From Psilocybe cubensis (lineage: Eukaryota), in the NCBI GenBank assembly GCA_017499595.2, contig CM039000.1:2108001-2172000 (forward strand): a stretch of 64,000 bases of DNA, read 5' to 3'. Below are positions 42,059 through 64,000 of the stretch, one piece after another; the stretch's first letter is position 1; each line of letters opens with the position of its first letter. The notes below the pieces were generated by a model. The model made no database searches. It had not been told where the DNA came from and saw only the letters and a program-made list of their open reading frames with translations. Made by a program: the position numbers and the translations under genes.

Positions 42059-42260
42059 CTTAAGTAGTCGAGCACGCCAAAGATGTCGCTGAGCGTCCTA
42101 GTGAACTGCGTCGTGATGGGCACGACTTTTGCCTGGCGAGGTGACGCACATGGACGACAATGCTCTCGTCTTTTCTGTGCCGCTCCGCCGCGAAACGGAG
42201 GTGAAACAGTTGTAGAAGTAGCCTAAGTGAAGTGGCAGCCAACCAGAGATGTCAGTAGGA

Positions 42261-43536
42261 ATCGTTAGTGTTCGGGATAGGAGATGGGCTATACTATGTA
42301 AGTTACTACAGAAAATTAGGTAGACAGAACGAAACATACCTGTGTAGAACAAGAGGAAGGAAATGGTGAAACGAACGACTTGAGTGAGAATCGTGTGCGT
42401 CTAATCGCATGGTTAGCAAACGGCGGGTACACTGGAGTTGCGACTTACCAGACATGCTTCGAAACTTTTGCGATGTCTTGTTCGCTGACCTGTATCTGCG
42501 CTGAATGACTGACCCAATATACAACACTGTGCAGAAAATTGTGTTACTTACGGCGAGCGTAGAGATCTCATACGTGCTTAACATCTGTGTTGGCACTTCG
42601 ATTACACCTCACGCACAATATCATTCGGTCCCCATTTCGCTCCCTGTAGTAGTATTTGTATTATTTACATGGTACACTACGCTAGACTGCCTACATGGAT
42701 AGCAGCGCTACTCGGTCTATATGTGCTACTTCACCCGCTAGATGAGCATGGTTGGAACAGAAGAAGAAGAAAGCGTGAGAATATGGCCAGCACGCCAACA
42801 AGTACCGCAGAAGTTCGATGCCGCTCATGCCGTCGCCAAATTGGTGATGCGCGTGATTGGTGGCACGGCATCAGCGGCATCAAACTTCTGTCCTGTATCA
42901 TGGCGATTTTGTGACGGTGTGACGCCTTTCCACCTCTCTCTCAACACTCACTCCTATGAAGCACGTCGTACGTAGAGATGGTTCGCATACGAGCTTACTG
43001 TAGTAGTAGCACTTTAGTGTAGACTCTAATACCATAAACTTAGCTAGCTGCGTACTCTAGTAATACAATTTTAGTTCAAGTGACATAGACCCGGCTTGGA
43101 AGGGCAGAGGAAATAGTCGGGTGAGCGACACAGAACGAGGAGGAACTACAATTCATTTGGATAGTGAATTACGCAGAAACATAGGTGCGAATCGTATTTT
43201 TATTACTATCAGGCAGGAAACACAAGCCAAGAACACCTTCTACAGCACACCCGCCGCCTCTTCGCCTGCCAGACCCGTATTCGAGCGTCACAAACATAGG
43301 TGAGGAATCATCTTTGCTATCAGTGCAGGAAACATATTCTACAGCACATGTGCCGCCTCATTGCTTTACAGACCTCACTTATTCAACGACGCACCCACCT
43401 ACATTCAAGAATTGAACGTTGAATGCTGCCATAACTTTATGTTTTGTACGACGCTGCCTACTGTAAGCACCCGATCTGCGAGGTACCCTCTTTGCAGGTT
43501 GCCGTTTTAATTTGGATTTCACGATATCGGGACTTG
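42261..43536 (-). repeat. Module R copy 1, left arm of the 1276-bp near-identical inverted repeat
   Basis: Reverse complement of 59814-61089 (coordinates sum to 103350, mirrored ORFs are identical). I spotted only two mismatches, at ~42267 and ~43474. Weaker similarity continues to ~43586. Confidence 0.97.
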
Positions 43537-44169
43537 TGTAGGATGTGCACATGGCTTCCGTCGACTCTCCTGCTAATGCAACTATATGCAAGTCTATTCT
43601 CATCTGACACGAGTAACGTAAATATCTCATTTACCCCCCCCCCCCCCCCCGTTGCTCTATTGAACCCCACAATTGGGATGACAGCCAGCGCTTTCACATG
43701 TTATTTACAACATCCTGATTTAATCAGGGGCTGCTAGAATTTTCGCTCATTCCGCACCTCGACTCGAGCCATATTTTTGAGAAGTAAGTTCAACCTTACA
43801 CGCGTGTAGGCAACGCTCGTGTCCTTTCTGCCTCCGTACTAGTCTCTTGTTTGGTAAAGACCAATTTTTCCATTGCTCCTCTTGCGTGTTATCATTCTGT
43901 CCTCGTTTCATAGGGACTACATCTAGTATGTAGACTACATGTTCGACGCCGCTCATGCCGTCGCTTGATTGGTGATTGCGCCAGCATCACATGTCGCCCA
44001 ATTATCTTATCTTATCGCTGTCAGAATAGACAAAACAGCAAGAGATCCCTTAAGACTGCCGGCGCAGCGCGATGGCAGGCGCAGAGCGAGACCTGTACTC
44101 GGATAATCCAAGGTGGCTTTACAATACGGATTGGTTTAACGGGCAGCCTATGATCAGATCAGAGTGGTG

Positions 44170-45570
44170 AAAGTGTCAAAATGAGTGAAGGCGTTAACAG
44201 CCGTGATTCATACGAGTTCTGAGAACACACCCCCGAGATTGTGTGGTTCAGCAAAGAAACAAAAAGATGATTGAGATATCTGGATATGAAGAGCTGTTTG
44301 AATTGCACCAATGCTAACGGAAGGCCACAACATATGTGCTTGTGGGACTCGATGAGAGCCATGAGCAATTCACATAAGATAAACACAGTCCGGCTCGATA
44401 TGGTGCAATCCAATTAAAACAGCACCTGCAAAGGGGGTACCTCCTAGACAGAATGCTTATCGTAAGAAGCATCGCAGAAAAAAATATGGCAGCGTTCTGT
44501 GAGTGTGGCGTCGTTTATTAAGTGACGTCTGTCAGGCGACGAGGCGGCGCATATAGAATATGTTTTCCATACTAGTGATAGCAAGATGATTCTCACCTAT
44601 GTTTCTGTGTAATTATGTGACCTCGAATGAAGGACTGGTGGGAGAAGAGGCGGCGCGTATGCTAGAACATGTTTTTGGTTTATCTTCTCTGTACTGATAG
44701 CAAAAGATGATTCTCACCTATGCTTTTGCATAATTCACCAGCACATGAATTGTCATGTTCACCGGTCTTTGAATTAAAGTTATTATGGTGTTAAAATCTA
44801 CGTTAAAGTATCCCTACCGCTAAGCTAAATATTTGAATCGAATTTACATTCGACCCGCCGCATTGGAGAGTGGGGGTTGTCAGAGAGGAAGAAAGGCGTC
44901 ACACCGTCACAAAATCGCCCTGATACAGCACAGAAGTTCGATGCCGCTCAAGCCGTCGCAACATTGGTGATGTGCGTGATTGGTGGCACGGCATGAGCGG
45001 CATCGAACTTCTGCGGTACATGTTGGAGAGCTGGACATATTCCCACGGTTTTCCCTTCTTTCCTGCGCACCATCCTGGCCACGACGTTCGGCGGGGCTGG
45101 TGAACCTGAACCTGTCAAAGCAGCACGTTGAGATTGAGTAGCGTAGCAATTTATGTACATGGACTAGCGTAGTGTGCAATGTATATAGTACTAGATCAGA
45201 GGAAATATTCTGCTACGAGATGAGGACGGTGACGCGTCAGAGGCATGGGGATCATATAGACTCTACCACCCGGTGCGATGTCTAGCGTACGCCCTGGTTT
45301 TGTAGGAGGTATGATGCTGCACATTTGGTCAGTTATCCACACAGATCCACCTTTAGTGAACAGAACATCTCTTGGTTGGTGAGTCGCAACTCCAGTCTAC
45401 CCTTCAATAGCAAAGCACACTGACTGCTTGCGGACCGTCCCGACCGTCCCAAGGAAAATTACAGACTGCTTGCTGAGCGTCCCTGGAAAAACTACACTCA
45501 CTTATTTCTTACCGAAGGTGCTCGTTGCACCGTCTGCTTCGTCTTGCTTCACTTAGGTATATTCGGTACA
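44170..45570 (+). repeat. Module R copy 2, diverged; inverted relative to copy 1 and direct relative to copy 3
   Basis: Collinear blocks shared with copy 3: acctgcaaag.gggtacctc, gatagcaa.gatgatt.ctcacctatg (twice), aaaggcgtcacaccgtcacaaaatcgcc, the 83-nt hairpin and gt.agtcgcaactccagt. Confidence 0.85.
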
Positions 45571-45767
45571 CTCTACATGCAATTTCTTACAACTATAAAC
45601 TTAGATTGAGTGCGTCGCAGCAAAGGAGGCCACAGGGCAGCTCTTAGCACCCACAAGACAGCTCACCTCCTTCCTTATGTTTTTACTCCAAGGTAAGCGT
45701 TCATCTCATAGCCGTTTATTAGCTGAAATTTATTGTTTCCGTAACAGTACTGCCTAATCCCTACTGT

Positions 45768-46647
45768 CTATTCTGCATCATTGACTCCTGCGATGTTGGC
45801 AAGGGCAGCTCGAACCCGAGCGCTTTCCCTCCTCCCCTCGACACGACGATGTGCCTCCGCCCTATATTTCAGCTTCAACTTCAACACGCTATGAACTGGC
45901 CAACATTTATCGTAATCCCTGAGAACCGGCCAACGCCTAGTTGCCTACCACGTGTGTCAGCCTTGCTTTTGAGTAGTAAAACAAACTGGTAATTACCTCT
46001 TGACATATTGCTTCAATTTTTTCCTTTTTCTGAGATCTGTAGCTTTTACTCATATCCAGCGACCTCCTTGCTTCTCGGGTGATGTATCCCTACGGACAAA
46101 ATCAAGGCATCAGTCAAGTATGGTGAGCCACTATTGATTTACATACCACCATATCTCCTATATCTTCCTCAGACCAGTGGAAGTCGTCCCTCAGGACTGT
46201 CTGGATATTAAACCCACCACTTCCCCGACGGCCAGGTTCTCCCTTTGGCTTCTTATACATTTCGCCTCCTGGGACCGGCGAAGTCACGCGAGGATGAGAA
46301 GGCCCCGCCACTTGGAGGATCATAGCGGGATCAATGGGTTGCCCAGGATCGACCTGCACATGAGTTGCTGGTGTTGCAATTGAAGGCCCGATTGGAGGGA
46401 CAGGTACGGTGTCCTGGCCTGAAGGTCCCTCTGCCTGTATGAGCTCTTCAGGCCCTGGAGCTGCGACGGATGATGGCTGTGGCGCGGCTCCACGCGGAAT
46501 GGCGTGTCGCTGTAGCAGCTCTGGAGTCCATTGGATACGAGGGGTAATCTTAGGTAGAGGTTCTTGACTGGGTAAGAGGAATTCGATCCGGGGAGTGATG
46601 AGGGGGAGATGACGAATGTATTCGTGTGAAGGATGCGAGGATGACAT
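45768..46647 (-). CDS. Uncharacterised protein, 3 exons, with a KPKGEPGR.GSGGFN / CWPV motif family
   Basis: MSSSHPSHEY...KKPKGEPGRRGSGGFNIQ...W...|GYITREARRSLDMSKSYRSQ...AICQE|ATRRWPVLRDYDKCWPVHSVLKLKLKY...* splices in frame. I recall this motif from repetitive agaric hypothetical proteins. Confidence 0.75.
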
Positions 46648-47231
46648 GGTATATGTCGAGGAAAGATTGTGCGTTTTTCTTTTCATTCACTATTTGTAGT
46701 TTCGTATTCGTCGCTCAATCATCCCCTTTGTTTATTCTATGTAACGTCTCGCTCTTCCGCAGACACTCATCCTCAGTGTGCACGTCAAATCTCAGTGCAC
46801 GTCAAATACGCACCAATTGTTTCGCAAAGTCGCTCTGCTAGTGTCAAAGATTGTTTGATCGATATCTTCTCACCGTAGGGGTAACCATTGATCGCTACCT
46901 ATCATTCTTTCATCAATATCTATTTCAGGGAGGGCTCAAGAAAGCATCATTTGTCTCTACAATGAGTGAAAACCCCAATGACAATATTATCAGACATTGA
47001 GCCTTAGTTATACAAAATGAGCCTTAGTTCCAATATGAATACGGTTTGGCAAAAACGTGACAAAAAGGCGACACGACTCAAAGGGAGATGTTATCTTTGA
47101 CGAGTTATCTGTGACTCGTCAATGGCCAGTGCCAAGGGTGTCACAATGACTTCCGGCGGCGCTGGCGGTAAAGTACTTAAAGAGCAGGAGTTATCACCAG
47201 TCGTAAACGATTCAAACCATCAGCACCCGCC

Positions 47232-49061
47232 ATGGCAAGTGTAAGCTTTGCATCCTGTAGTTGTCGCCCGCTGACATGTTCGATAGGAGAATTTCGCAAT
47301 ATTCAGAACATATAAGTTGCCATCCATTCTGCCTATCAACACTTTATTGTTCTCAGAGGACGCTAGACTCTTAATATCTGGCGGTGAGTCTTTTCCTATC
47401 GTCAGTGTTAGGTAATCTTTAATAAGAACAATATCATACTTAGGAGATGACGAGACGGTATATGTCTTGGACACAAAAACGGGGGAATGCATTCAAACTC
47501 TTGAGGATGACAACTGGGGACAAATCACCACAGTTGTCTGGGGACAACAGGAGTTACCCAACAGAGAAAACGGCGTTGTGTTATGCATTGGCACGGGGAG
47601 AGGGTGTTTGGCGTTGGTTGCGCTAGACTATGATGCCACCGAAGTACTTCTCTTTCTCGTTTCAACTTCCTGTGTCCTTACATTCTGTATATCATTCCTT
47701 AGCCATTCCCAGTAGGCGCGAACACATCTCCTGTATTTGCGTTCAATGACTCTGTCGAGAAAATGGCTTTCGACAAGCTCAACAATCGATTAGCCGTCAC
47801 AAGTCACTCCGGTGAGATCAAGGTTTTTGCAGTAAACAACAGTAAGTACTCTTGTCAATCGCCCTAGCACTCAAACCACACGAATATGGTACTCCTAGCT
47901 TCCTTGAGGTTATTGTGGGCCGATAATATTGGCAAAGTGATCACCAGCGGCCTATTCTTTTTTGGGGGGTCGAATCAAAGCCTCTTGACCATCGGGTTGG
48001 AGACATCGGAAATGTGCGTTGATGTTTCTGTTTCCTTGCAATATATTCACGAATTTCTACCACAGGAAGTGCCTCGATGCTTCAAAGAGAGGTCCGCCAT
48101 TATGGACGAAACATTTGATTGGTGGGATGTACGTGCTACTTTATGGAAACCCTCCATTATTTTGATAAATTTTTGAATATTTGACAGTGGAAGCGCGTCT
48201 CTGTCCAGCGATGAAACGTTGCTTCTTGTAGACAACCTTGCTACCGGTAACTTCGACGTCTATCAGATCGCCGACAACTCCCCTCTTCGTTCCCTGCCAA
48301 TAGGCTCGACCCGTCGATTTTCCAAGCAATGCGCCTTCTTTGAAGGTTCGAAAATAGCAGTTTGCGGCAGTGACACCAATAAAGTTTTCATTGTGGATGT
48401 CGCAAACAACTATGTTGTTCAGACACTGACAACATGTCGAGGTTCGACTTTTCGCTTACCCCCGCATTTCAGTTTATTAATTTGTGGACTTAGGTACTTA
48501 CATGACACAAACGGTCTGTGTTACTCCATCGTCATCGCGCAACGTCTTTGTCGCCGCCGCATGTCGTGGCTATGTATATATCTGGGAAAAATCAACTCCT
48601 CAAGTCCAGGTAAATGTTCGCGCAGATGACCCTCCCCCTTCGAGGTACCGTCGCGTTGGATCCGCTATTTTGCCTTACCTGGGATTTGCTGTCGCTGGTA
48701 CTGTCGGCCATTGGTTACCACACGCCTGGAAGGTGAGCAGCTTACAATCCTTTTGGCATTTGACAAACTAATGATATTCAAGTTGGGCCAAGACATAATC
48801 ATGAAGACTGCTGATTATCTCATCCAGAATGGCGCAGATAGGACGATGGAACTTCCAAGAGAAGCTGTTGACAAAATCTTCGAGATGGCGGCAGCGGCCT
48901 CGAGGGCTTTGGATATGTCGTCGGCACTGGTGTCGTCGAGGACTCTCGACATGGCTGCTATTGCTACAACAACATACACGGCTGCTACTGCGACTGCTAC
49001 GATGACATCCCCTTCTGCTACCTCTCTTTTTGACATGGCAGCAGCAGCGGCTGGCCATTAG
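47232..49061 (+). CDS. WD40-repeat protein with a C-terminal hydrophobic segment, multi-exon
   Basis: INTLLFSEDARLLISGGDDETVYVLDTKTGECIQTL, DSVEKMAFD...LAVTSHSGEIKVF, IAVCGSDTNKVFIVDV, GYVYIWEK, all joined by GT-AG introns. Confidence 0.8.
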
Positions 49062-49209
49062 AATCTGCATCTGCGTATCCTTCTAATTTGAAACGTGCCC
49101 TAGATTTCTTTTGTACATTTATGATATCGGATAATGACATTTTGCTGAGTAACCTGACTACATGCATCGAAGCTATGATCTACACAGTTTTCCATTATGT
49201 TCTCAGTGG

Positions 49210-52200
49210 TCAAAGAATTTGCCTATCTACAGGTCGGAGTCGGGATAAAGATACACATACAGCGACGTCTCTATCTTCCCATGGGATGATACATTTGGCA
49301 AAGTGTCCTTCTACAGCTGAAAAAGGAAGGACTTCGAGGATATCTTGGACGTCGGTTCCCCATAGTTTGGCACGAAAATGAACCCACGGGATATAAGGAT
49401 CGTATTTGACCCCCGCTTCTTGGTATCGATTAACCACAAACCATATATCATCCCTAAGTACTTTTTTAGGAAACTTGAGGACATTCTTGATACGGTAGGG
49501 CACATTTGACGCATTGAGGACCCCGCTATTGCCTTCATGTACGTCCCAAGATGTATAAGATATCCGACCAACGCGATAACGGTTTGTATACATTGCCCGC
49601 GCGGGCACGGTTGTCACACCATACCGTAAAAATGCCCGAGTAATGTCCATCTTTAACACCACCGCACGTCGATCATCGTATGGGATGGCTTCTTCTTGAA
49701 GATCTTCTTCGCTTTCCTCGTCGTCTGTCTCAGTGTCATCGTCGGCCTCAGCATTTGCGACATCGATTGTCTCTGCTTCTCCTGCGAGTATGTACCGTCC
49801 TTGGGGCATCACCAACTTGCGAAAGATCGGCCAACAGTCCCGAATAGCTTGTGGACATCCTGGTCTTTGAAAAATTGCCATAAGTTTGGACCTTCTGTGC
49901 CAGGAAGTCGCAATTGTTTCCTCGTACTCGCCTACTATAGATCAGTAACCATGAAAGAGCAGGCAACAGGTAAAGCAAATTACCTTGCTTGTAATTTGTG
50001 GGAATTCTTTGCAGCATCCCAATCATACGTTCGAAGGGAAACGTCCACCAACCATGAACAGGCCCATATTCGATGATAAACTCCCTCATATGCATAGCCA
50101 TATGATGATTAGGAACACACTGGTAGCTTGGAAACAGCCTTGAAAGCTCGGAACGGTATTGTACCATCAAATTCAGGTATTCATTGGCCATAGCTGGTGA
50201 TGCGACCCGGGAAGTGATGACAGATATGGCCTCAAAAAGAAGCATCGTGAGGCGCAAAAGTTCTCGACGTGTTTGGGCAGGTTTCGAATGGTCAATTCCC
50301 GACCATATTCGGATGAGGGTAACTGGGATGTAAAGTGCTGCCGCAATGCGCCATTGGTCTGATTTGAGTTTTCCACTCTTTGCGGACATCGACCAGGGTA
50401 ACGACGAGACCCATGACGGTTTTACCATAGCTGCAATGTCTCGTCGGATGGATTTCATGTCTTCTGCTGTAAGTATCTTTCCCTGCTTGCCATCCACTTC
50501 TGAAGTAGCCTGGCTTGACTGTGACTGGCCGAAATTTTTAGTTGTTAGAAGAATTGAAAAATTTAACAACGTACGGATCTTTCTTTACGCTATTCACCGC
50601 GTATTAAACTATCAGATTGATGTTGAGGTAACGACGATGCAGACGTACCCATTGAACAAGCATTTGGGCCAGATCTTCTTTCTTGACTCGCATCATACCA
50701 TTTAACGTGTCCCGGCCACGATTGGTGATGGTAGAGGGTATACACCCCAGATGTTTACCAACAAAAACAAGGGCTTCTGCTGCGGTCTTCTTTGCCAACT
50801 CGTTTGCTACGTCGGCATCTTCGATTGGAAGAGGCTCTGCCAACCATTTTCTGATGATGCGTATTCCTTTTTGACCAGACTCTGAGGTTGGCAAAGGATT
50901 ACTTTCATTGCCCTCAATGTTTTGTAATATAACGCTATCGCTCGATATAGGTGTTTGTTGTTTCTTCTTCTGCTTGGGTAAATCAGAACCGTCACCGAGA
51001 ATGTGCTGAAAATGCTCTTTGATGAGTCCAAGAAAAAGGTTATGCATCGGGTCTACAACAAGGCTCATGGTTGGCCGATAATAGGGCAATCGATGAAATT
51101 CTGACGTGCGCAATCCGGATTTGTCGAAAAGGCTTGCAGCGGCCTTTTCGGAGGGGGCTGCCTGGTATTTCCAGGCACCATCTCGACATTCGTCATCGGT
51201 GCGCCATGTCCATTTTTCATAATCGAAGTTGTTGAATGTATGCACAGTTTTACTACACCAGCACATCGAACAGAAATATTCCTGATTGTATGAAGAAAAT
51301 CCACCAGCCTTCCGTGCTGCAGGAAGATCGGCGATGATTGCAAGAAGAGCACAAAGAATAATGCGCCCCATAGCGTAAAGAGCGGTGCGCGTAAAAAAAA
51401 CACCCACCCAAAACAGCAGGAAAGTGTCAACAATAGGGCGGAAGTATGGGTTTGCTGCTTCTAGACTGGGTTCATTGGGACCCGGAATAATACCCGCGAG
51501 AAAGATGTTTTCAGGTTGATATCGAGTAGTTATGGGAAGGTTGAGGCATGTTAATGCGATAACTCCAATTGAAATCTTCTTTCCAGCCGTAAGATTACGC
51601 AAAGGATTAAAGAAATCAAAGCCGAGTGAAAATAGATAACGTCCAGTAGTTTCATTTCCGGATACACCGAAAAATTTCTTATCGCATCCCTTGAAGTTAC
51701 GGATGCTGGAAGACTGAAAAATATCGTCCATGCGCCCATTTTCTTGAACAGGTTCGAACGTTTTCTTCCAAGCACCGTCCATTGCTTCCTCGTATCCTCG
51801 ACGCGATAACATGCCACCAAGCCAGTCCTGGAAATCGAATGATAGGAAGGGTTTGATGGGTACATTAATGGTCTTATTGCTGTATCTCTTTGGCCGGACA
51901 AGAAGTTCCCCACAACGATTACCGAACTTCCGGGCATTGCATCGTTCGCGATAGGTAGAAATATCGTCCTCTAGGGTTGGCTTGTAGATTTCATTGCACT
52001 TTGGACAAGCGGCATACACGATGAACTTCGAATCAATGTCAAAACGCTTGATTGCCGCTCGAACGTCTAGAGGAAACGAACGAAGAACTTGCTCGAGCCA
52101 ACGAGGAAGGATTTTGTCGACAAAGATAGCCTCTCCCGTTCTTTGAGCGATATATTCGCACATGGAAAAGACAAAATAGCATCCACGTCGAGGAAACCTC

Positions 52201-53043
52201 AATATAGCGTAGCAAGAAACAACCATAAGGTTGATCATCTGCATCGCGTCAATTATCCATGGGGGTAGCCAAGGCATACTGTATGCATAGGGAAGGAAGG
52301 GAAGGAAGTGGTGCCCTAGGGTCGATAGTTGATAAATAGTTCATCGAATACAAAGTGAAAAATAAACATGCTCGCTCACTTGAATCGTATAAATTAGGTA
52401 CGCTATCCTGAATAGAAACTCGCTGGCGAGATCTCTTCGTTTGCCTCTCCTTCCATGTTGCCTCTACACGGTCTACATCTTCATTAAGTCGCTCGATATT
52501 TTGGTGTGCATCATGTCGCAAAGATTTGATCGAGGCTTCCTTGCGCAAAGGACCGGATTTCGTAAAGTCTAAATCTCTCGATGCGTTGGAATTAAGAGCT
52601 CGTACTTCATGGCAAAGTTGAATTGCCTTATCAATTTCCCCATTGCTGAAATATTTCTCTCCTGAGATGTCAATGGTGTTGATTTGTTGGGCACGAAGTC
52701 TGGTATTGTCTAGAATATCTGCAATCAGAGCCACGATTTTTTTCTTCTGTTCGTGCTTGTACTGCACTTCCTTTTCCTTGATCGTCTCGGTGTCCGGGTC
52801 CTGAACAGATAAAAGTTGCATTGCTTTCTCCAAGGTGGTTTCGACCTTCTCCATGGCCCTTTGCTGCTCAAGGATCGCCCGTGATTCAAGATTCCTCTTC
52901 ATCTGACCCACGCTTTCCTCGTGTTGGTGCTTTTTATATGTAGATGGCGACAATTGAACACCTGGCTGTCCTGTGACAGGATCGCGTTTCGCGCCGCACC
53001 CATGCACAGTGCACAGGCAAAACTTGGCTTTCCAAACCGGCAT
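49210..53043 (-). CDS. CACTA/CMC-EnSpm (Tnp2/Transposase_21-like) DDE transposase, about 4 exons, apparently intact
   Basis: YAACPKC, GFDFFNP (D), GIIPGPNEPS, RPIVD, IADLPAARKAGGF (D), FCSMC (CxxC), VDPMHNLFLG, KLKSDQW, PNHHMAMH, YGPVHGWWTFPFERMIG (E). The four ORF pieces splice in frame. Confidence 0.93.
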
Positions 53044-53571
53044 AGGTCTGTCGAATCAACCAGAATATCGATATCGATGTGGTAACGGTTAAGCAATGAT
53101 AAGAGAAATTTTACCACATGAGAAATTATTATGCGATCACGCAGCTGCAGCTGCAGCGGAGGCAATGACCCGGAGGAACTCGATAAGGTGATGTCGCCGA
53201 AACGCCGAGGCATAACAAAGGGACTGAGCGATGAAAGACTAGCGTTTTCTTTTAAAGCGCTTGTTCAGGAACTTTCTTCATTACCCTCACCCAAACACCC
53301 AGCACAACTGAGTCTAGTCGTCCAACTAAACTATGTCTCAACCTTCCAGGAGTCGTAGTAACAGCAAATCATCCGTAACAGGGGCTACCCCAATATATAC
53401 CGCGATGCTTTCCCGCGAACACTATATAAAGGCTGTTAGCGCGAGATCAAGAAAGAACGCAGGGGTAAGTTGTCTAAGGATTGATTGAGGCGCATTTTTC
53501 AATGATACATTACCTTCTGTTAGAAGTCTGCTTCGAGGCAACGCCGGTCTCCTGAAGCAGGGGACGCTAGC

Positions 53572-54892
53572 ATGGTGGCAGGGCCATCGAGATTCCAGGA
53601 AGTTGATGATGACGACATGGACCAATCCTTTGAATCCAATTCAACTGCGTTAGTCACCAACACCTTGACGTCCAACAAAACCCAGGCTGCGGTGCGCTTG
53701 AGTATAATGATTTATGTATTTCAATCTGACAGTACATACTTTCACCAGGGGAGTATTCAAAGGGCCTACACGGCCCCAATGGTCTCGTCCTTTGCCGAGA
53801 ACCGTGAGGTTTCCACCGAAGGTCCATCGACAGAGATTGCGAATGTGTCGGTGGATGCTGGGAGAGACAATCTTATGACCAGACGTCCTCCTATACAGGT
53901 GGCCAACGTGAATGCTATATTAGCCATACTCCCAGGCCGGAATGAATTGTTTCCCGCCGTTCAACATAACCGATCTATTGCCAATGGATCGTATGCAGCA
54001 TCCACCAATGTCCAGAATGATCGAGGCATAACCAATCAACAAAGCGGAGTGGATGCTGGGATAGACCAAGTGATCATTAGTCAAGTACGCCACGATCATA
54101 CGCCGTCGACTTTAGCACTAATCAACTACTTTCGATGAACAGGATGAATATGACAGGCTGAAGTCCACTTCAAATGCTGCAAGGTTGAGAAGTGATGATA
54201 TAATAGCGACCGTAAGAATAATGAAATGATTCATAAGGAGGCGACTTACATCTGCATCCATTTTCCAGGTTAGAGAAGTTCAAGCCGACAGGGAGCGCAT
54301 TGCCGCCCTTGAGCGAGGTCTAACCGAGCAGGGAGAGACGTTTAAATGGGTTAGTTTGGTTTCTTCCCTCACATAACCTTATGACGTTTATCCGAGACCG
54401 TCACACTTTTTAAACAATTATATTATAGGAAATTGACAAAGCGAGCAAGATGTATACTGAGCTCTTGAAGGAGAAGGTGGCCCAGGAAAACCTGTACCTT
54501 GAAACGAAGAGGGTAAATTTACAATATGACCGATATCGATAATGTTAATGACAAATTTAAATAGGAAAATGACAGGTTGAAGGAGCTGGAAGAGACAGTA
54601 CTTGGATTCGCAAAATGCACAATTTGCTATGAATTTATGGAGCAAATTTGCGTGTAAGCCTTTTCGAGAACTGTGTTTACAGATCAAAGTGACCTCAGAA
54701 CATTATCACAGCTTTGCTTGTGGTCATGTTTGCTGCAACGATTGCAGGACAAAGCTCGAGTTATTTGACACACTGAGGTGCTGCTTTGTATGCCGCACAT
54801 TTGTTCCAGATGAACAACCCCTCTCGCGTTACCATCCCCTCAGCCAGATTCTGTCCAATGTAAAGGATAAGGCTAATGCAGAGGGTGTTTAG
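53572..54892 (+). CDS. RING-finger (C3HC4) protein with a coiled coil, multi-exon
   Basis: Spliced C-terminus DSQKCTICYEFMEQ...FACGHVCCNDC...CCFVCR, preceded by ENDRLKELEET and RERIAALERGL. Confidence 0.8.
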
Positions 54893-55036
54893 AGTAATCC
54901 TACTCCCTCTGCACGCTGCAGCTTCTGTTCGAGGTGATCATATAAGTATATAGCAAATGAAGAATGTCATGTTTCATACCAGAATTTATATTATCTTCAC
55001 AAGACGAGGTGATGGTAGAGAAATACCAAAAACAGG

Positions 55037-58000
55037 TCACAGTATCTTTTTCTTGTACTGGTCTTTTAACTGAGTCATAACATTGGAGTTGAGGTCTCTG
55101 TCTTTCTTGGACTCGGGAACTGAACACAGGAAATCCGTGCTGAGTATAAATCGCTCGCCAGTTAAAACGTCTACACGATCTTTAGATCGGGTGACTACAG
55201 CGACCAAGACAGTTGGATTATCCGAGGTGCCTTCATGATGAATGCGACGAACGAATTTCCCGCAATGTTCCCCCTTGATAACCACTAGAGGCCCATTGTC
55301 ATGTATTCGATTTGCATACTTCGGAGTGACCCAAGCGGGGTCCACCATAGTCCATGAACTGTACTTTTTGCACCTGAGTACGAGGTTGTTTGCATCCCAA
55401 ACCGTTGAGGCGACTAATGTTTTATTGCTGAACTGTCCGCCGTTGACTACCACATTCAGGCTGATGTCCACCAGTTTGGGGTTTAAGAGAACATGTTCGC
55501 ACACAGAAGAGGAAGTCGTATGACAGTTTGTTTCAGATGAGGAGGAAACAGATGTAGAGACGTCTGATAACGCAAGACTTGTTGGCGAATGAGCAGTTGG
55601 GTCAGGTGTCCTTGAGGAGGGGTCCCAAGCTGGAGTGATAGATTGCGGTGTACCGATGGGTGTCCTTGAGGAAGGATCCCAGGCTGGAGTTGCAGTGGGT
55701 TCTGAGTACATCGGTGTGCCGCTCGCTGACGCAATCGTTTGCGGTACGCCAGGGAGAACGCGGACGTGCTTCATGGAAGACTTAGGTATAGGACGGAAAA
55801 ATTTTGGCCCAGGATCAAGGAAAAGAACGAGCTCATTGAACGTCCTTGCGTACAAGTTAGACAGAGGGTACATGCAATGACAACACACTTACGAAAGTTC
55901 GACGACATCGTCATAGTCCACAACGATTGTTTGGAACGGTGCAAAGGGATTAAAACGGGTGAGTTGAATAACGAGCTGCAGTCCGGCGTTGTCTGTATGA
56001 TGAAGGACGTCTTTGATTCGTCCAGTCTCACCCTTGCGTGGGTGAAGATGCTTCTGTATAATGACCTCTAAACCAGTCCATGGGTGTCTTAAAAACTTGG
56101 TGTGGACTGGGTCTGACTCCGACAATAATGTCACATCGACAAGAGGTAGGGGCTCAGTAAATGAAGTGTCCAAGAGATTGACGTGTACCGCAAAATGCTG
56201 TTGAAAGGTATAGCCACGTTAAGAGAAAAACCGGTGAATATGTCAAGCTGCAAATTTACTCACTTCCACAATCTCAACCTTGTTATCATCTCCTACCCCA
56301 GAATTAAACTGGTTAGATGCTGCTGTTGTACTGACCACAGCGCCCTGGTTGTACGACTCCTGAGCTGCTGTTGGTTTTCCTACTCCTGTGACACACGAAC
56401 TCCCTCCCGGCATCGACATTTCTTCTTCATCTAACGTTGCTGCTGATTCATCCAAAGTTAGAGCGATATCCGAATGCACCATTATACCCCCTGGCATCAT
56501 TTGCGCTTCTACCGCCGTCCCCAGATCTGTCTCCGCCGAACCTTTTCTCAGATCATCGTTCCCTGTCGGCACGGGATATTGTTCTTTTCCGTTGGTGGGC
56601 GTCGAAGATGTTTCAGCATTTGTTTCCACAATGGAAATGCGACCATGCACCGAACTTTTCGTTATTAGTGCATGGTCTCCATGGATTCCAACGACCCAAC
56701 CTCTGTGATCGAAATAGGGGCCGCTCACAACTCGAACGAATTGCCCGATTTTTGGTGACTTGAGAATGTCTAGCCATGTTCCCCTAACACTGTAGCGGAT
56801 TTCACGTTCACCTTCGATTGTTGATTGTTCTGCTTCAACGTCGTATGTGTCCAGCTTTTTCAGCACTGCAGGTTCCCACTTTGCAGACCGATTCGCAACG
56901 TCGGGTGTACGAAAAAGAACCTCCTCTTCCAGTCCTAAGCACCATTCCCGAGGACGTGGCATACGCGCTCGCATTATGTCGGGATGATTGGTGCTCCTAA
57001 ACATGGAGAAGTGGGAATACGGAATATCCATGACGGAATTTGCGATGGAGGTATAGTCGAAATCCTTTTCCAACAGTCCATGGTCAAACTTGAGAAGTCC
57101 AAGCGTGTATGATCCATCCGCATTGCGAATAATGGGAGTAGAAATGAGTTTGCGGGCTTCTTCAGGGTCGAAAAGTTTTGCTGGGGGTACTAGTACCGAT
57201 GACTTTCTCTTTTGTGACTTTGCAGATTGCGAATTTAGCCGAGGAATGAGAAGAACCTGAGCGCCCCAGGAAAAAGTCGCTGAAATCAGTCCAACGTCTC
57301 CTTTGTATATGCCTTTCTTAACCAAAACCCAGGTCCCAACCTCAAAATCCTTCTTGACATCCCTCATCGTAAGAAGTTCGTGCTGATGGTTCCGATCCAC
57401 TATTTCGCGCTTGACTCCAAGGTGGTTACGAAGGATTCCGGGCGTGGACAAGAGCAGATTCACGAGGGCTGGATCCATGATACCTTCAACGTAGATACTT
57501 CCGCGTATAGAGCCGCGAGTAAATGCGGAACGAATATGGTGGATCTCCCTTGCGGTCTGGAGAAGGGATAGGACAGCTGCATCCTCAGAGCCGATCTGCA
57601 AAAGTTGATAGAAAAATAATCAAGGGATAGGTATTCAGACTTACCCGACATCCAACCCTCCAGAGAGGATAGTCATTCTCAAGCGGAAGACGCGCAATCT
57701 TCTCCTGGAGCATGGTTATCCTATCTTCCTCCTCCAAACGTATAACCGGACGTGGTTGACGAGGGCCCTTTGCTTGAGCCTCCAGGCGAGCCAGTAGTTG
57801 GTTAAATGAATCCTCCTCGCTGTCATCTTCTGGCCTATGGAACGCCATAGAGCCTATGTGATCTTTCCCGTCCACTTCCGCTCCGTCGTTAATGAAGGCA
57901 TCTGTAAAGACAGTCAAATCAAGTCTATCGCAACATTCTGAACAGCTCGCCTTCAAGGTCCCGTTCTGCAGACGTAAGCTGCTCATCGTCAGAAAGCTCT

Positions 58001-58123
58001 CCATCATCAGCTACCTGTGCCTCCGTGTCCAGAAATTGGCGGACGTTCCTCATAACCTAGGGAGAAAAAATCATGAGTATCAAGATGCTTTGAACAGAAA
58101 TCAAGCAAGCCTACCCGCTTCAT
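55037..58123 (-). CDS. Spt5/NusG-like transcription elongation factor paralogue (acidic N-terminus, NGN, multiple KOW, CTR-like repeats), about 6 exons, ~930 aa
   Basis: RQFLDTEAQVADD...FIND; LWRVGCR|IGSED...IRSAFTRGSIRGSIYVEG; GTWVLVKKGIYKGDVG..LLIPRL..PPAKLFD; KIGQFVRVVSGPY; HPRKGETGRIKDV; TPAWDPSSRTP twice; VVIKGEHCGKFV. The exons splice in frame. Confidence 0.88.
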
Positions 58124-58329
58124 CCTTTGGACTGTGTCGTTCGATGGAAATGAACAAATTTAATTAGATGATCAGTTACCACTCTGACTTAGGAATCGGA
58201 ATCTATATGACGTTGGTGTGCTCAGTAAGTTTTTTTCATCTTCATTACGATGGTGATCTCATTTTCATTTTCCAACTATCCAAATCTATCACTGAACTAC
58301 GTGTAATAGTACATATTCTCGTTCCGGTT

Positions 58330-58520
58330 CAACGCCAATGCAGAATCCGTGGCGTATCTTACCTGGAATGACAGCCCCTGAGCAACGAGGAGACAAAACG
58401 GTATGGTGGAGAGAAGAAGAAAAAGAGCGTGGGAATGGGTGGGGGGCTGTAGAAATGGCGCAGAAGTTCGATGCCGCAAATGCCGAAACATATCACGTGT
58501 TAATGTTCCTCGGGCATCCC
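58330..58520 (-). repeat. Module R copy 4, a short diverged fragment upstream of the Spt5-like gene
   Basis: atggtggagagaagaagaaaaagagcgtgggaat...cgcagaagttcgatgccgc matches 42748-42825. Confidence 0.7.
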
Positions 58521-59379
58521 GGGTGTGGATGAGGGTTCAAAACATTGAGAGCTGAGCGTCGTGCTGAAACTTATCAATGCGGAAGCGCTCATGTGAACAC
58601 TTAAGCTCGTATCCTGTTAAAAATGCATGGTGAAACCTATTGTAGGGAACCTAGACGATGGAGCGACACGAAGTAGTCGGCTCGTCCTGAATGAAAAATT
58701 CATAGAAAATGGACATAATAAATTATTGACATGACCGTTGAGACAACTCATCCAGAATAAAATTTAGGGGCAGAACCAAGGGGCACACCGTTAGTTCCAT
58801 CAAAAACCAAGGCACAAGTTATGTATGGCGTACCCAGGTCTATGCTACCGCGAAACTAAGTATTTCGTTGCTTGCATATTCAAAAGTACGTACTACAGTT
58901 TACAAACAGTGGGAAATCAGCTACTCTACAAGAGTCTCAGGTGTTTGTATTTCCGAAGGAAAATAAGCACATTCAAATAATCTTGTAGTGAGCGGCGACC
59001 TTAGCATTTTGTGAGCCCAATAATTCGAGTATCAACGGTAGATATATTTGCGTGGAAAACGGTAAAAACAGACGAGGCCGTACTTCCAAGGACCCGCAGA
59101 AATAAGTTAAGGAGAACATCCTGGTTCATTGATCCAATCATGTAGATAGGGTCACCATGACACTGTAATAGAAGAAGCGCGGTTGTAAAAATACAGGGCC
59201 AAGTCCTCAATAACGAATATGTGAAACATACAAATTAGGCACCTCGTCGTCGAAGTCGACAGATTTGCGGGCCACGTTGCGGTGTCTACCACAACCTTTG
59301 CGATAATAAACATGGATAAGCTCGTACAGTTAGTGAGCAATGCAGAGCGGTGATGAAGCTCTACACATAATATGTCACT

Positions 59380-59709
59380 GAACATCTCGTGTTCGGGAGA
59401 GTAAATTCGGCTTACAGTACGTGTAAAACAATACCTCACGGCGATTCGAGTTCGAGGGTGAAGTGGGCGCTGGGCAATGGCCGTGTTAGATTGTTGAACG
59501 AGATTTTAAACCACCCACTGGCAGGACAAAATGGGGTTGGAAAGTCACCGAAGATTATTATATCAAGTAGAGCTTGGGTTAATAAATTTAGTATATCAAT
59601 TGCAGATATTGATGAAGCGACATACTTCATAGATTGAAGAGAATTATTAGACGGGAACATCTCGCGTGTTCGAGAGAGTAAATTTGGCTTACAGTACGTG
59701 TAAAACAAT
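59380..59709. repeat. Direct repeat of ~54 bp (59380-59432 and 59655-59709)
   Basis: gaacatctcg(cg)tgttcg(g/a)gagagtaaatt(c/t)ggcttacagtacgtgtaaaacaat occurs twice. Confidence 0.92.
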
Positions 59710-59813
59710 TGAGACTGGTGCCGCTCGAATACCTGATAGAAAAAAGACGGAGCCAATCTATAGTTGCATAAGCAGGAGACTCGACGGGAGCCATGTGCAA
59801 ATCCTGTATATTC

Positions 59814-61089
59814 CAAGTCCCGATATCGTGAAATCCAAATTAAAACGGCAACCTGCAAAGAGGGTACCTCGCAGACCGGGTGCTTACAGTAGGCAGCGTC
59901 GTACAAAACATAAAGTTATGGCAGCATTCAACGTTCAATTCTTGAATGTAGGTGGGTGCGTCGTTGAATAAGTGAGGTCTGTAAAGCAATGAGGCGGCAC
60001 ATGTGCTGTAGAATATGTTTCCTGCACTGATAGCAAAGATGATTCCTCACCTATGTTTGTGACGCTCGAATACGGGTCTGGCAGGCGAAGAGGCGGCGGG
60101 TGTGCTGTAGAAGGTGTTCTTGGCTTGTGTTTCCTGCCTGATAGTAATAAAAATACGATTCGCACCTATGTTTCTGCGTAATTCACTATCCAAATGAATT
60201 GTAGTTCCTCCTCGTTCTGTGTCGCTCACCCGACTATTTCCTCTGCCCTTCCAAGCCGGGTCTATGTCACTTGAACTAAAATTGTATTACTAGAGTACGC
60301 AGCTAGCTAAGTTTATGGTATTAGAGTCTACACTAAAGTGCTACTACTACAGTAAGCTCGTATGCGAACCATCTCTACGTACGACGTGCTTCATAGGAGT
60401 GAGTGTTGAGAGAGAGGTGGAAAGGCGTCACACCGTCACAAAATCGCCATGATACAGGACAGAAGTTTGATGCCGCTGATGCCGTGCCACCAATCACGCG
60501 CATCACCAATTTGGCGACGGCATGAGCGGCATCGAACTTCTGCGGTACTTGTTGGCGTGCTGGCCATATTCTCACGCTTTCTTCTTCTTCTGTTCCAACC
60601 ATGCTCATCTAGCGGGTGAAGTAGCACATATAGACCGAGTAGCGCTGCTATCCATGTAGGCAGTCTAGCGTAGTGTACCATGTAAATAATACAAATACTA
60701 CTACAGGGAGCGAAATGGGGACCGAATGATATTGTGCGTGAGGTGTAATCGAAGTGCCAACACAGATGTTAAGCACGTATGAGATCTCTACGCTCGCCGT
60801 AAGTAACACAATTTTCTGCACAGTGTTGTATATTGGGTCAGTCATTCAGCGCAGATACAGGTCAGCGAACAAGACATCGCAAAAGTTTCGAAGCATGTCT
60901 GGTAAGTCGCAACTCCAGTGTACCCGCCGTTTGCTAACCATGCGATTAGACGCACACGATTCTCACTCAAGTCGTTCGTTTCACCATTTCCTTCCTCTTG
61001 TTCTACACAGGTATGTTTCGTTCTGTCTACCTAATTTTCTGTAGTAACTTACATAGTATAGCCCATCTCCTATCCCGAACACCAACGAT
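59814..61089 (+). repeat. Module R copy 3, right arm of the 1276-bp inverted repeat
   Basis: Reverse complement of 42261-43536. Confidence 0.97.
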
Positions 61090-61129
61090 CCGCACTATGC
61101 GCTATTAAGCAAACAAGATCCCGGACTTG

Positions 61130-61604
61130 TCATCGTTCGGATACCGGTGTTCCTTCCAACTCAACTCCACAACCCCTTTCGCACGGATAGGGCCCTCTGG
61201 ATGGGAATAGGTTATCAGAATTGCATTGCATGATGTGTAGAGCGCGTATACGCAGACGTATGACTGGGTAAGTCTGTTTACGTCGCATGTCCCATGGCAT
61301 TCGCTGATATACCTGACAGACCCTGATTCCCATATCCTCCATGCACATTGCGCAGGTGGATGACATTCGCATCCTTCTCTCTGTGCAGAACGAGCATCGC
61401 TGAGAGTGCACGATAAAATACCAATCAAGTAAGTAGCAGGTTCACTTACCTTGACGCTTCCACTGATTTGCCACATCCAAACTTTGGCTAGCAAGTCGTC
61501 GAACCTGGATGGCCAGCGAGGGGTCCATCGTCGCCCGACACGAACGCATGTACTTCAGTCGTGGAGACGTGTAGGCTCGAGCGGGAAACTGGGGCAACAT
61601 TAAT
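61130..61604 (-). CDS. Possible small spliced hypothetical gene
   Basis: MLPQFPARAY...QWKRQ|AMLVLHREKDAN...|VIRLRIRAL...SER* using GTAAGT...CTCAG and GTATAT...CCCAG introns. No homology recognised. Confidence 0.3.
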
Positions 61605-61884
61605 GTACGTGGCTGAACGAAGACGGCTGCGCACAGTACTCACTCCTCACACAGAGTTGCAACGCCCGTCCTTTGCTGTGTCCTCTCCATTCCATCGGTT
61701 GCATCAACGTTTTAGGGCAAACCATGACATATACAGAAGGTCATCATTTCGCGAGAGTACGTTTTTCGTCTTCTGTCTCTCTTTCTTAAGCACCAGGTTT
61801 TGATCTACAACTTCTCCTTAGCACGCTATACTTACGCCCGAGATACTAGCCATCATCCGCAAGGGCGGGCCCTCCGCAGAATGG

Positions 61885-61980
61885 ACATCTGGAGGGTGAA
61901 GTACCACATACAGACCGAAAAAGCGCAGCAATAGTCTACTGTAGCGTACAACGTAAACAACAGTACTACGGGGGACTTTT
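61885..61980 (+). repeat. Module R copy 5, a short diverged fragment
   Basis: catctggagggtgaagtaccacatacagaccga resembles catctagcgggtgaagtagcacatatagaccga at 60606. Confidence 0.65.
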
Positions 61981-62105
61981 CTGCTATGAAATGACGACCG
62001 AATGCTATCGTGCAAGTGTGACCAAAGATAACACGAAGTCTACTAACGCAGACAGTCTTTGTGCACCGCTGGTCTGTGGATTCGTTGTCGGTGCTTTCAT
62101 GCAGG

Positions 62106-62671
62106 CTAATGCTTTACAAAAAACAGGTTTTTCGGGATTTTGAATGGCCTGGTTTGATTCACTGATTGAATGAAACTAGGGGTTGTTAGTGTCGTCAAAC
62201 TTCATATTGGCATCCGGCCTCACCTTTTGGTCGCAAAATCAGCTAAAATTCTGTCGCGCCCCCCGAGGTTTACCAATTCTTGGTGTTTTCCTTTCTTAAA
62301 GACGACAATATCACCCTTCCAATTGCGCACTCTCCATCTCCGAATGCTTCTGTTAGGGGGGAGCCTGCAATGGTTCTTGACAAAGACATGAAACTGCGCA
62401 ATCTTCCCTCTATTCGAAATTGAAACAATAGCATCGTGGATGTATGGCTGCAGGCGTTTCCCTCCCATGACCAGGTCGAGACGGGGGCTTCTGCCGCTTG
62501 TGTTCTGAAGGGTGTGTATCGCTTTGTTCACGGGTCTTTCTGCGTGCGCGCCATAGTAGCGCGCTCTTAATGATAGCGAGGTGTCCTGGAATCCTTAAGA
62601 AGAACGTCAAGTATCCTCGCGAAATTGCTCACCCTAGTCCGTGGGATATATTTAGCAAGTGCAGAAACCAT
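62106..62671 (-). CDS. Small basic uncharacterised protein, 3 exons (QPYIHD / GDIVV / VNLGGRD motifs)
   Basis: MVSALAKYIPRTR|DTSLSLRARYYG...QPYIHDAIV...FHVFVKNHCRLPPN...KGDIVVFKKG...VNLGGRDRILADFATK|SFIQ...KH* splices in frame. Confidence 0.75.
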
Positions 62672-63007
62672 AGTTTGGCGGGACTGAATGACGGTAGAGG
62701 GTGAATGTGGGTGTATAGGGTTGAAAGAGAGGTTGAAGGTACAGGACCAGTGAGTTTTAACATAATCATTCACGACGCCTTTGATACAAAGAAGTTGTTT
62801 GGCCCAGGTTTCCATCAAAAGCACTCGAATGGGCATGCGCTCGCTTCCTTCAATCCGCGCCGGTTCGGCGCGGCGCATTTAACAAAGGAAGATACGGTGT
62901 GTTCACTTGCTCGTCCTTTGACAAAGAACCTGGCATGGCTTATACTTGATCGTCAGTATTTCCATCTTGTAAGAGCGCCACTCCCAATCATCACACCAGA
63001 TCCAAGC

Positions 63008-64000
63008 ATGGACGACGCTTCGATGGAAAATCTCTCTCTGCCGGGAGCCTTCAACAGCTCCCCTACAGAGCAAATGGATATCACCTCCAGCGACGACGTC
63101 ACCCGCAATCATCCAGGACCGTCCCAGACTCCCCAATCCCCTACAGAGCAAATGGATATCACCTCCAGCGACGACGACGCCCGCAATCATCCAGGACCGT
63201 CCCAGACTCCCCAATTACAGTCCCAGATTCTCAAACCACAAGAATCGGGCAAGCGAAAAAGGAGTGATCATGAAGAGATATCGTCGAGAAAGTTAATTGC
63301 AGTCGAGCCTGAGTATCTTCAAGAACTCGAGTTCGCGGTAACTCACTTCAATTGCCGTCTCAAATTTTAACTCAACATACCGTTGTATTCAAGGTTGATG
63401 AGTTGACTAAGAAGCTCAAATCGAAGGATAAAGAAATAAAGCGCCTTCAGAGCATAGAGCCGAGCGTCAACGATTTGAAAGATGCTGAAATTCGACACCT
63501 TCGCGTTGTAGAGCAAAAGGTTGAGACTTTGATTATTGGAAAGATATATGTACTAATAGTAATGTATCATCCAGATATCCAAAGAGAAATCGGCGTCTGA
63601 TGGGGCATATAAGACCTTACAATCCCAATTCGAAGACTATAAACGAGTACGTTTCCCAGGCTTCATGTTATCGTACCTGCGTTTAAGCATCGAACAGGAC
63701 GTGGATCGCCAACATAAAGAAGCATCCCGTGCTAAAGAGCACGAAATGTCTGAGGTATGTAGTCTACCAAAAATCAGAAGCATCAGCCTCTCATTGCTAG
63801 CTGTTTTCAAGCTGGAAGCAAAGTTCAAACAACAAATCGAAGAACTCCAAATTCATCATGACCGTACGGTGGAGGAATTAAACAAAAAGGTTGAATCCCA
63901 GTCTCTTCAGATTTCATCTCTGGTGGAAGACAGTCTTGAAGAATCAGAAACTGCGAAAATATTGCTAAATGAACCCGATGGAGAGGGGTCCAATATCTTG
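63008..64000 (+). CDS. Coiled-coil protein, multi-exon, runs off the window end
   Basis: MDDASMENL...GKRKR (NLS-like)...ELEFA|VDELTKKLKSKDKEIKRLQ..., with GT-AG introns. Confidence 0.65.
63059..63215 (+). repeat. In-frame 78-bp tandem duplication
   Basis: SPTEQMDITSSDD..RNHPGPSQTPQ is encoded twice with only a few substitutions. Confidence 0.95.

Follow-up and report, generated by a model that had tools for sequence, protein, structure and literature searches.

What is a gene for a divergent copy of the elongation factor Spt5 doing beside a DNA transposase in a mushroom genome? Spt5/NusG is, to our knowledge, unique among transcription factors in being conserved throughout all life, and each of its few known paralogs (RfaH, plant SPT5L, and ciliate Spt5m) revealed a special transcription or silencing pathway. 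The gene in question, named Spt5L herein, was found at 55037..58123 (-) in a stretch of 64,000 nucleotides from Psilocybe cubensis (assembly GCA_017499595.2, contig CM039000.1, positions 2,108,001 to 2,172,000), which is called the window below and numbered from its first letter. Reading frames, splice sites, and an identical database protein give Spt5L 5–6 exons and a length of 938–948 amino acids. The protein is confirmed as a full-architecture, highly diverged homolog of Spt5. We consider it probable that it is a transposon-linked Spt5 paralog; the gene would then be accessory to a large DNA transposon (at least 20 kb, about five copies) that was recently amplified and is driven by a Tnp2 transposase.

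Homology to Spt5

The preliminary description of this locus, made from the sequence, had claimed a highly diverged Spt5 paralog with the full set of domains. Pfam models, sequence searches of the PDB, profile-profile alignment, and an AlphaFold model searched with Foldseek agree on this, at 25%–28% identity to canonical Spt5. The protein runs from an acidic N-terminus through NGN, the KOW1-linker, and KOW2/3 into a disordered acidic/Ser-Thr stretch, followed by another KOW and a C-terminal part made up of two TPAWDPSSRTP repeats, a tandem KOW-like domain, and a terminal helix. Aspartate and glutamate account for 31 of the first 120 residues, and the N-terminal FLDTEAQV (an FLDxEA motif) aligns to the fungal Spt5 chain 8qsz_Y.

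HMMER comparison with the Spt5-NGN, KOW, and Spt5_N models, which had been named earlier as a check, gave a divided result. With the full-length database protein P0001 (948 amino acids, P. cubensis), which is 100% identical to Spt5L over the main exon of 458 amino acids, NGN (PF03439) scored 24.7 bits against a cut-off of 22.4 and KOW (PF00467) 31.8 bits against 22.3; the two models pass in four of four and three of four family proteins tested, respectively. Spt5_N had no match on P0001 and reached 18 bits (cut-off 24.2) on the family member P0003. KOW1_SPT5 (17.5 bits, cut-off 22) and KOW5_SPT5 (16.4 bits) were both under cut-off on P0001, as was the Spt5 CTD model PF12815 on the last-exon frame (16.6 bits, cut-off 25.4).

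A phmmer search of all PDB sequences with P0001 returned 10 matches at E ≤ 0.01, all belonging to Spt5 or to RDM3, an Spt5-like protein of plants. The best match, 8qsz_Y (E 1.4e-17), is collinear over residues 9–444, which cover FLDxEA, NGN, the KOW1-linker, and KOW2, and over the repeats, where HMMER aligned the TPAWDPSSRTP units to the TPAWNSGS repeats of that chain. Among 12 other family members, seven have one TPAW-type unit and five have none. When an alignment of 44 family members was compared with eight canonical Spt5 sequences by hhalign, the probability was 100 (E 1.6e-42, 398 columns, 25% identity). The AlphaFold model, which was computed from the same family alignment, has a mean predicted local distance difference test (pLDDT) score of 69.8, with 553 of 948 residues at pLDDT ≥ 70. 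Residues 125–447, 575–700, and 800–947 are confident, and residues 1–121 (partly), 451–572, and 703–793 are disordered. Foldseek found 46 PDB matches to this model at E ≤ 0.001, and the best 24 are Spt5 chains of RNA polymerase II (Pol II) elongation complexes (E 2e-19 to 2e-12). Single domains were also matched, including the KOW1-linker (4ytk, TM 0.80), human NGN (3h7h_B, TM 0.70), and human KOW6-7 (5ohq, TM 0.64).

Gene structure

An uninterrupted spliced frame of about 930 amino acids with the Spt5 landmarks in native order had been described, and the gene does appear intact, at the length given above. The stop codon is at 55037-55039, the annotated ATG at 58123, and a second in-frame ATG at 58053. 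The first exon block ends at 57951, and the others are 57901-57645, 57595-56263, 56197-55893, and 55844-55037; four long stop-to-stop frames (57585-58010, 56243-57619, 55889-56218, and 55037-55888) underlie them. Introns are 48–65 nucleotides long with GT-AG ends and CTAAC-like branch sites, except at the first junction. The frame has neither stop nor frameshift if that junction is a 49-nucleotide GC-AG intron (57902-57950), which we infer because paralogs read ERDLE-DAFINDG without an insert. Two public annotation sets splice this junction differently from the GC-AG solution and from each other, and their residues differ there. Public records label the Spt5L proteins "Transcription elongation factor SPT5." Of a run presumed to be RNA from this species (X15), no reads aligned; from X12, one contig of 207 nucleotides (55883-56089) reaches a few bases into an intron and is uninformative on Spt5L expression.

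Copies in Psilocybe cubensis

Whether Spt5L is the single SPT5 of its genome had been raised as a check, and it proved to be multi-copy. P0001 falls in a 90% cluster of 10 members that reduce to five distinct sequences, each present in two annotation sets. In NCBI records these five copies are on five contigs of 3.05–4.68 Mb, and they differ at six amino-acid positions when differences between N-terminal gene models are set aside. The window holds the copy with K at position 61. P. cubensis also has a 74% paralog (P0002) and a second subfamily (P0024, P0171, and P0173), whose identical proteins occur at two loci each; at least 11 Spt5-like proteins in two subfamilies are found within this species. 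Spt5L is thus unlike a housekeeping gene with a single copy.

Word-based database searches for canonical Spt5 gave plant Spt5 and one animal-like Spt5 only. One candidate, P0023, was rejected as the fungal canonical Spt5 because it resembles human SPT5 most closely. Since Spt5 is universal, we infer that a separate canonical SPT5 is present in P. cubensis. The ESM Atlas, taken as a lead only, has a Basidiomycota cluster with 92%–95% canonical domain content, apart from two poorly annotated Basidiomycota clusters.

Two differences between copies were seen in raw DNA reads of another strain (X13). At residue 61 (position 57866), the codon is for E in 125 of 125 X13 reads, so the window copy with its K, or its variant, is absent from X13; the difference may be an insertion or copy polymorphism. 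The two TPAW units of Spt5L are a 54-nucleotide tandem duplication (55605-55690), and nine X13 reads skip 61 nucleotides there, which fits a paralog with one TPAW unit.

Transposase and repeated unit

The transposase lies about 2 kb from Spt5L, as first described. It is of the Tnp2 (EnSpm/CACTA-Plavaka) type, occupies 49237..53055 (-) downstream of Spt5L on the same strand, starts ~2.0 kb past the Spt5L stop codon, and looks intact, with three to four uninterrupted blocks. It matches PF02992 with 34.9 bits (cut-off 28.6), has weak DUF4218 and Plavaka matches, and is 40%–49% identical to DUF4218/Tnp2 proteins of other Agaricomycetes. It is collinear with full-length proteins of other Agaricales; in one of these, the 924-residue P0186, residues 1–915 align with 52226-49237 in three uninterrupted blocks.

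Read depth places both genes in one repeated stretch, 44000..63999, which is a minimum extent. From X13 (1631.7 Mb read), 26,326 of 10,806,199 reads were aligned to this stretch. Summed depth is 133–188 in every bin from 44000 to 59340 and 115–146 over 62009-63999. Set against a single-copy depth of ~35, a figure calculated from an assumed genome of ~46 Mb and not measured on a control stretch, these depths mean that 44000-63999 is present about 4–5 times in X13, in agreement with the five protein copies. P. cubensis contig sets total 41–47 Mb. Variants at 10%, 17%, 25%, and 40% of X13 reads fit several copies. In a third strain (X7), a single contig of 10,275 nucleotides (44992-55261, with four other letters and five gaps) covers the transposase gene and the intervening spacer and ends within the 3' part of Spt5L.

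Ordinary host genes (up to ~38.8 kb) are found in the leftmost ~41 kb of the window; they include SPRY, PAP2, GH63, class-V aminotransferase, and peroxin-3 genes. The left end of the repeated unit is between ~41.6 and 44.0 kb, and its right end is beyond the window. CpG observed/expected values are 0.85–1.03 over 40–64 kb, and three of 13 listed transitions are in CpG; neither CpG depletion nor CpG-focused mutation was seen in this region. Changes of C>T or G>A make up 142 of 204 X13 variant places, an excess that is ordinary transition bias, given that CpG is neither depleted nor a focus of mutation.

Family across Agaricales and signs of selection

A profile built from six members was scored against 1.84 billion representatives and found 2337, 1267, and 280 clusters at E ≤ 1e-3, 1e-10, and 1e-30, respectively. 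Among the best 150 matches, 33 have at least 600 amino acids and 113 have fewer than 450, as expected of decayed or broken copies. Nine long family proteins were scanned with Pfam; six have some Spt5 domain, three have none, and the full canonical domain set was found in none of the nine. Names were available for 19 of 20 family representatives looked up. Genera represented are Psilocybe, Pholiota, Panaeolus, Cyclocybe, Armillaria, Lentinula, Collybiopsis, Stygiomarasmius, Hymenopellis, Marasmius, and Dendrothele, and further members come from Psilocybe cyanescens and Flammula. All 11 species checked, which are most of those named, belong to Agaricales, in the suborders Agaricineae and Marasmiineae.

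A quick maximum-likelihood tree of 40 family rows and four non-fungal canonical Spt5 rows (782 columns) has Psilocybe, Pholiota/Flammula, Panaeolus, marasmioid, and physalacrioid groups. Single genomes contain several lineages (at least three in Panaeolus and two in P. cubensis), and the second P. cubensis subfamily is nearer to P. cyanescens than to the subfamily of the window. The family appears to be an old, fast-evolving, multi-copy set of Spt5 paralogs across Agaricales that has seemingly not been described before.

That the gene is maintained by selection had been proposed, in contrast to broken captured fragments nearby, and conservation across Agaricales and the pattern of codon changes are signs of this. 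Blocks of invariant residues extend along the whole of Spt5L among species at 31%–42% identity. Reads of the 74% paralog in X13 over 56991-57230 have 18 base differences from Spt5L in 17 codons, of which 11 are synonymous and six non-synonymous, a small sample from 240 nucleotides chosen by read similarity. The six non-synonymous changes reproduce residues of P0002. Together, conservation and codon changes point to purifying selection on Spt5L.

Upstream partner gene

A tblastn search of the window with all fetched proteins gave one further homologous region, at 62118-62588 (-). It belongs to a short open reading frame (sORF) at 62223..62671 (-), with exon 1 at 62671-62633, a 47-nucleotide intron, exon 2 at 62585-62223, and possibly a third exon from 62175. 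The sORF is intact, encodes ~135 amino acids, and matches two small P. cubensis proteins, P0174 (59%) and P0175 (52%), as well as the N-termini of gene models fused to Spt5L, namely P0173 (60%) and P. cyanescens P0003 (50%). P0174 has the accession numbers that come immediately after those of P0171, the Spt5L protein of subfamily 2. In three lineages the sORF is upstream of Spt5L on the same strand or fused to it in gene models, and in the window the sORF, Spt5L, and the transposase are all co-directional. A Pfam scan of the sORF gave no match, and its structure model (mean pLDDT 45.1) was not used. Its nearest entries in the ESM Atlas, again a lead only, are three unnamed Basidiomycota clusters of 70–128 members.

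Alternative explanations

The gene had been called transposon-borne. In support, Spt5L and an intact Tnp2 gene share their copy number within a repeated unit that extends over at least 20 kb; neither terminal inverted repeats nor a target-site duplication could be found for the element in the window. Short inverted matches between 41.3–42.3 kb and 61–64 kb were limited to the A/C repeat described below and one 10-mer. In PMC12730594, EnSpm/CACTA-Plavaka termini are given as CAC..GTG, TGT..ACA, or CATCA..TGATG with target-site duplications of 2–3 bp. Other results also weigh against a transposon link or leave its support thinner. The right end of the element probably lies outside the window. 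The transposase protein search, in which 10 of 3168 candidates (488–2000 amino acids) reached E ≤ 1e-5, gave no P. cubensis protein and no locus tag adjoining a family member, and the Pfam scan found a fused transposase domain in none of the nine long family proteins. Clades of the family tree broadly track Agaricales taxonomy, which fits vertically inherited transposon lineages and also a host gene family. The five copies, with their six amino-acid differences, are too alike to judge selection among them, and the calculated depth baseline and the small codon sample belong on the same side.

Much of this would suit a family of host genes, in which Agaricales have specialized Spt5 paralogs of their own, for example for transposon silencing like plant SPT5L/KTF1. 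Copies would be in repeat-rich DNA and multiplied by segmental duplication, and the adjoining transposase would be incidental. The taxonomy-like tree, the missing element ends, and the nine long proteins without a fused transposase domain are all in its favor, as is a match of P0001 to plant RDM3/KTF1 (8hyj_W, E 2.2e-11), although fungal Spt5 chains match better than RDM3. A host family accounts poorly for five copies on five Mb-scale contigs with only six amino-acid differences, and for at least 20 kb of uniform depth that includes an intact transposase. It also has to accommodate 280 clusters at E ≤ 1e-30, of which many are fragments, and the presence of several members on contigs of only 3–20 kb. 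GW/WG dipeptides number two in the 948 amino acids of Spt5L, both within folded domains, so there is no AGO-hook platform of the kind known from KTF1. On balance we regard a host family as unlikely.

Spt5L could instead be a functionless copy of host SPT5 captured in a transposon (Pack-type), with a frame that is open only through recent amplification. The five copies are too alike to contradict this by showing selection, and no RNA support for Spt5L was obtained. Over longer spans, however, the architecture and many invariant residues are kept at 31%–42% identity across both Agaricales suborders, and a neutral passenger could not survive so long with its architecture kept among diverged species. 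Changes relative to the 74% paralog are mostly synonymous (11 against 6 codons), and the pair of sORF and Spt5L is kept in three lineages. A captured passenger is therefore quite improbable. That Spt5L is the ordinary, merely divergent canonical SPT5 of the fungus hardly merits belief, even though its public name says so and no other SPT5 was retrieved from the P. cubensis genome. At least 11 such proteins in two subfamilies occur in this one species, identity to canonical Spt5 is 25%–28% with the repeat region down to two units, and the Pfam models for Spt5_N, KOW2-5, and the CTD are missing or under their cut-offs. The ESM Atlas lead to a separate canonical Basidiomycota cluster argues in the same direction.

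Predicted function

If Spt5L is the accessory gene of a transposon, its best kept parts suggest where it would act. These are NGN and the KOW1-linker, and since NGN seats Spt5 on the clamp, Spt5L probably binds Pol II at the Spt5 site, as judged from sequence conservation. PMC3382729 describes NGN as binding the clamp coiled coil across the DNA channel. NGN and the KOW1-linker would accordingly be the parts that seat Spt5L on the Pol II clamp in place of host Spt5, probably with host Spt4. The repeat platform seems to be cut to one or two units, and host regulation that acts through this platform would therefore be weakened. A polymerase loaded with Spt5L might then escape platform-dependent controls, such as pausing, termination, and perhaps the recruitment of silencing factors. 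Such a polymerase could continue through sORF, Spt5L, and transposase as one long co-directional unit, or it could avoid transcription-coupled silencing.

We put forward such a replacement of host Spt5 on the element, with evasion of controls and reading through the unit, by analogy with bacterial paralogs and only tentatively, with our doubts outweighing our confidence. Displacement of host Spt5 would be expected to confer resistance to termination or to transcription-coupled silencing and read-through of a unit of more than 20 kb. A dominant-negative or targeting role of Spt5L is equally open. The broader idea of a eukaryotic DNA transposon that supplies an RfaH-like Pol II elongation factor of its own, perhaps with the sORF protein, and has long persisted and diversified with it in Agaricales, is somewhat more doubtful still.

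Comparison with known systems

Canonical Spt5, represented by the fungal chains 8qsz_Y and 7wbv_W, has the same domain order as Spt5L, and its NGN and KOW1 core motifs are kept. The canonical protein has a long repeat array where Spt5L has one or two units. Spt5L further differs in being multi-copy, 25%–28% identical, and transposase-linked, in its disordered insert (residues 451–572), and in that several Pfam Spt5 sub-domain models are under their cut-offs.

Plant SPT5L/KTF1 (RDM3) is likewise a lineage-specific Spt5 paralog tied to transposon biology, and RDM3 matches P0001 over NGN-KOW1 at the E value given above. The plant protein is the product of a host gene that works in silencing, whereas Spt5L is within a repeated, transposase-bearing unit. 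KTF1 carries a GW/WG (AGO-hook) repeat platform; the two dipeptides of Spt5L are incidental and do not make up such a platform. Ciliate Spt5m is another lineage-specific Spt5 paralog, encoded by a host gene and acting in DNA elimination. In bacteria, LoaP and the plasmid-borne ActX/TraB are further specialized NusG paralogs.

RfaH, as described in PMC3382729, excludes NusG and enhances foreign operons. It is a paralog of a universal elongation factor, works for foreign or long transcription units, and rivals the housekeeping protein, and Spt5L is predicted to resemble it in this; this is an analogy only and does not imply membership. Bacterial NusG paralogs are two-domain proteins whose recruitment depends on a DNA or RNA signal, in contrast to Spt5L, a eukaryotic protein of 940 amino acids with a predicted function.

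Fungal DNA transposons (Kyakuja, Zisupton, Plavaka, and EnSpm) carry TET/JBP genes that are thought to counter silencing by methylation, as stated in PMC12730594. These dioxygenases offer a second likeness, being chromatin or transcription factors on DNA transposons of Agaricomycetes with a proposed role in escape from silencing (PMC12730594), although they are other proteins with another activity than Spt5L. Neither Spt5, nor KOW, nor "elongation factor" appears in the main text of that paper (PMC12730594). A search of the literature and of the text of three transposon papers, with supplements and subscription journals outside its coverage, found no published link of Spt5 to fungal transposons. 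Spt5L joins two known themes, specialized Spt5/NusG paralogs and the accessory chromatin genes of fungal DNA transposons.

If the transposon link is true, Spt5 paralogs on or tied to mushroom DNA transposons would give mobile DNA a newly recognized means of manipulating Pol II, and Spt5L would take its place alongside the TET/JBP enzymes that transposons of these fungi carry. For annotation, the "SPT5" label on these proteins can mislead analyses of orthology and copy number. The family also offers natural, highly diverged variants of NGN, KOW, and repeats for dissecting the parts of Spt5.

Other repeats and minor features

Three related repeats of roughly 1.3–2.4 kb lie in or next to the repeated unit. 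Repeat C (59467..61829) is between the sORF and Spt5L and has ~3 times the depth of its surroundings, with X13 depths of 333–550 over 59.3–61.3 kb and ~160 around it. Loose read ends are found at 59467, 59814, 60406, 60537, 61089, and 61829. Repeat A (42254..43586, (+)) is an inverted copy of part of C, ~1330 nucleotides at 99% identity, within which a perfect inverted pair of 1283 nucleotides (42254-43536 and 59814-61096, 100% identical) is 16.3 kb apart. Repeat B (44346-45060) is a diverged third copy (~72%). Each of the three has an 83-nucleotide palindrome built from a 20-nucleotide motif, which occurs eight times in the window, with 0 occurrences expected, and only at 42.8–45.0 and 58.5–60.5 kb. 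The depth of C suggests roughly 15 genomic copies. Repeat C is probably a nested insertion, and the A/B/C repeat is possibly a non-autonomous element. The A/C pair was considered as the terminal repeats of the larger element and rejected, because C is a higher-copy repeat and because the sORF and the 4–5 times depth continue past the pair.

The spacer between the transposase and Spt5L has two open frames on the opposite strand, 54581-54892 (+) and 53524-54138 (+), one of which has a weak RING-finger-like match under the cut-off (E 0.037). Another open frame inside the 4–5 times stretch, at 62705-63370 (+), encodes 221 amino acids and has no Pfam match; it contains two tandem units of 78 nucleotides that are 97% identical and encode SPTEQMDITSSDD..RNHPGPSQTPQ. 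In the neighboring host region, a (GGT)n microsatellite of ~60 nucleotides (40097-40157) is within a glycine-rich open frame.

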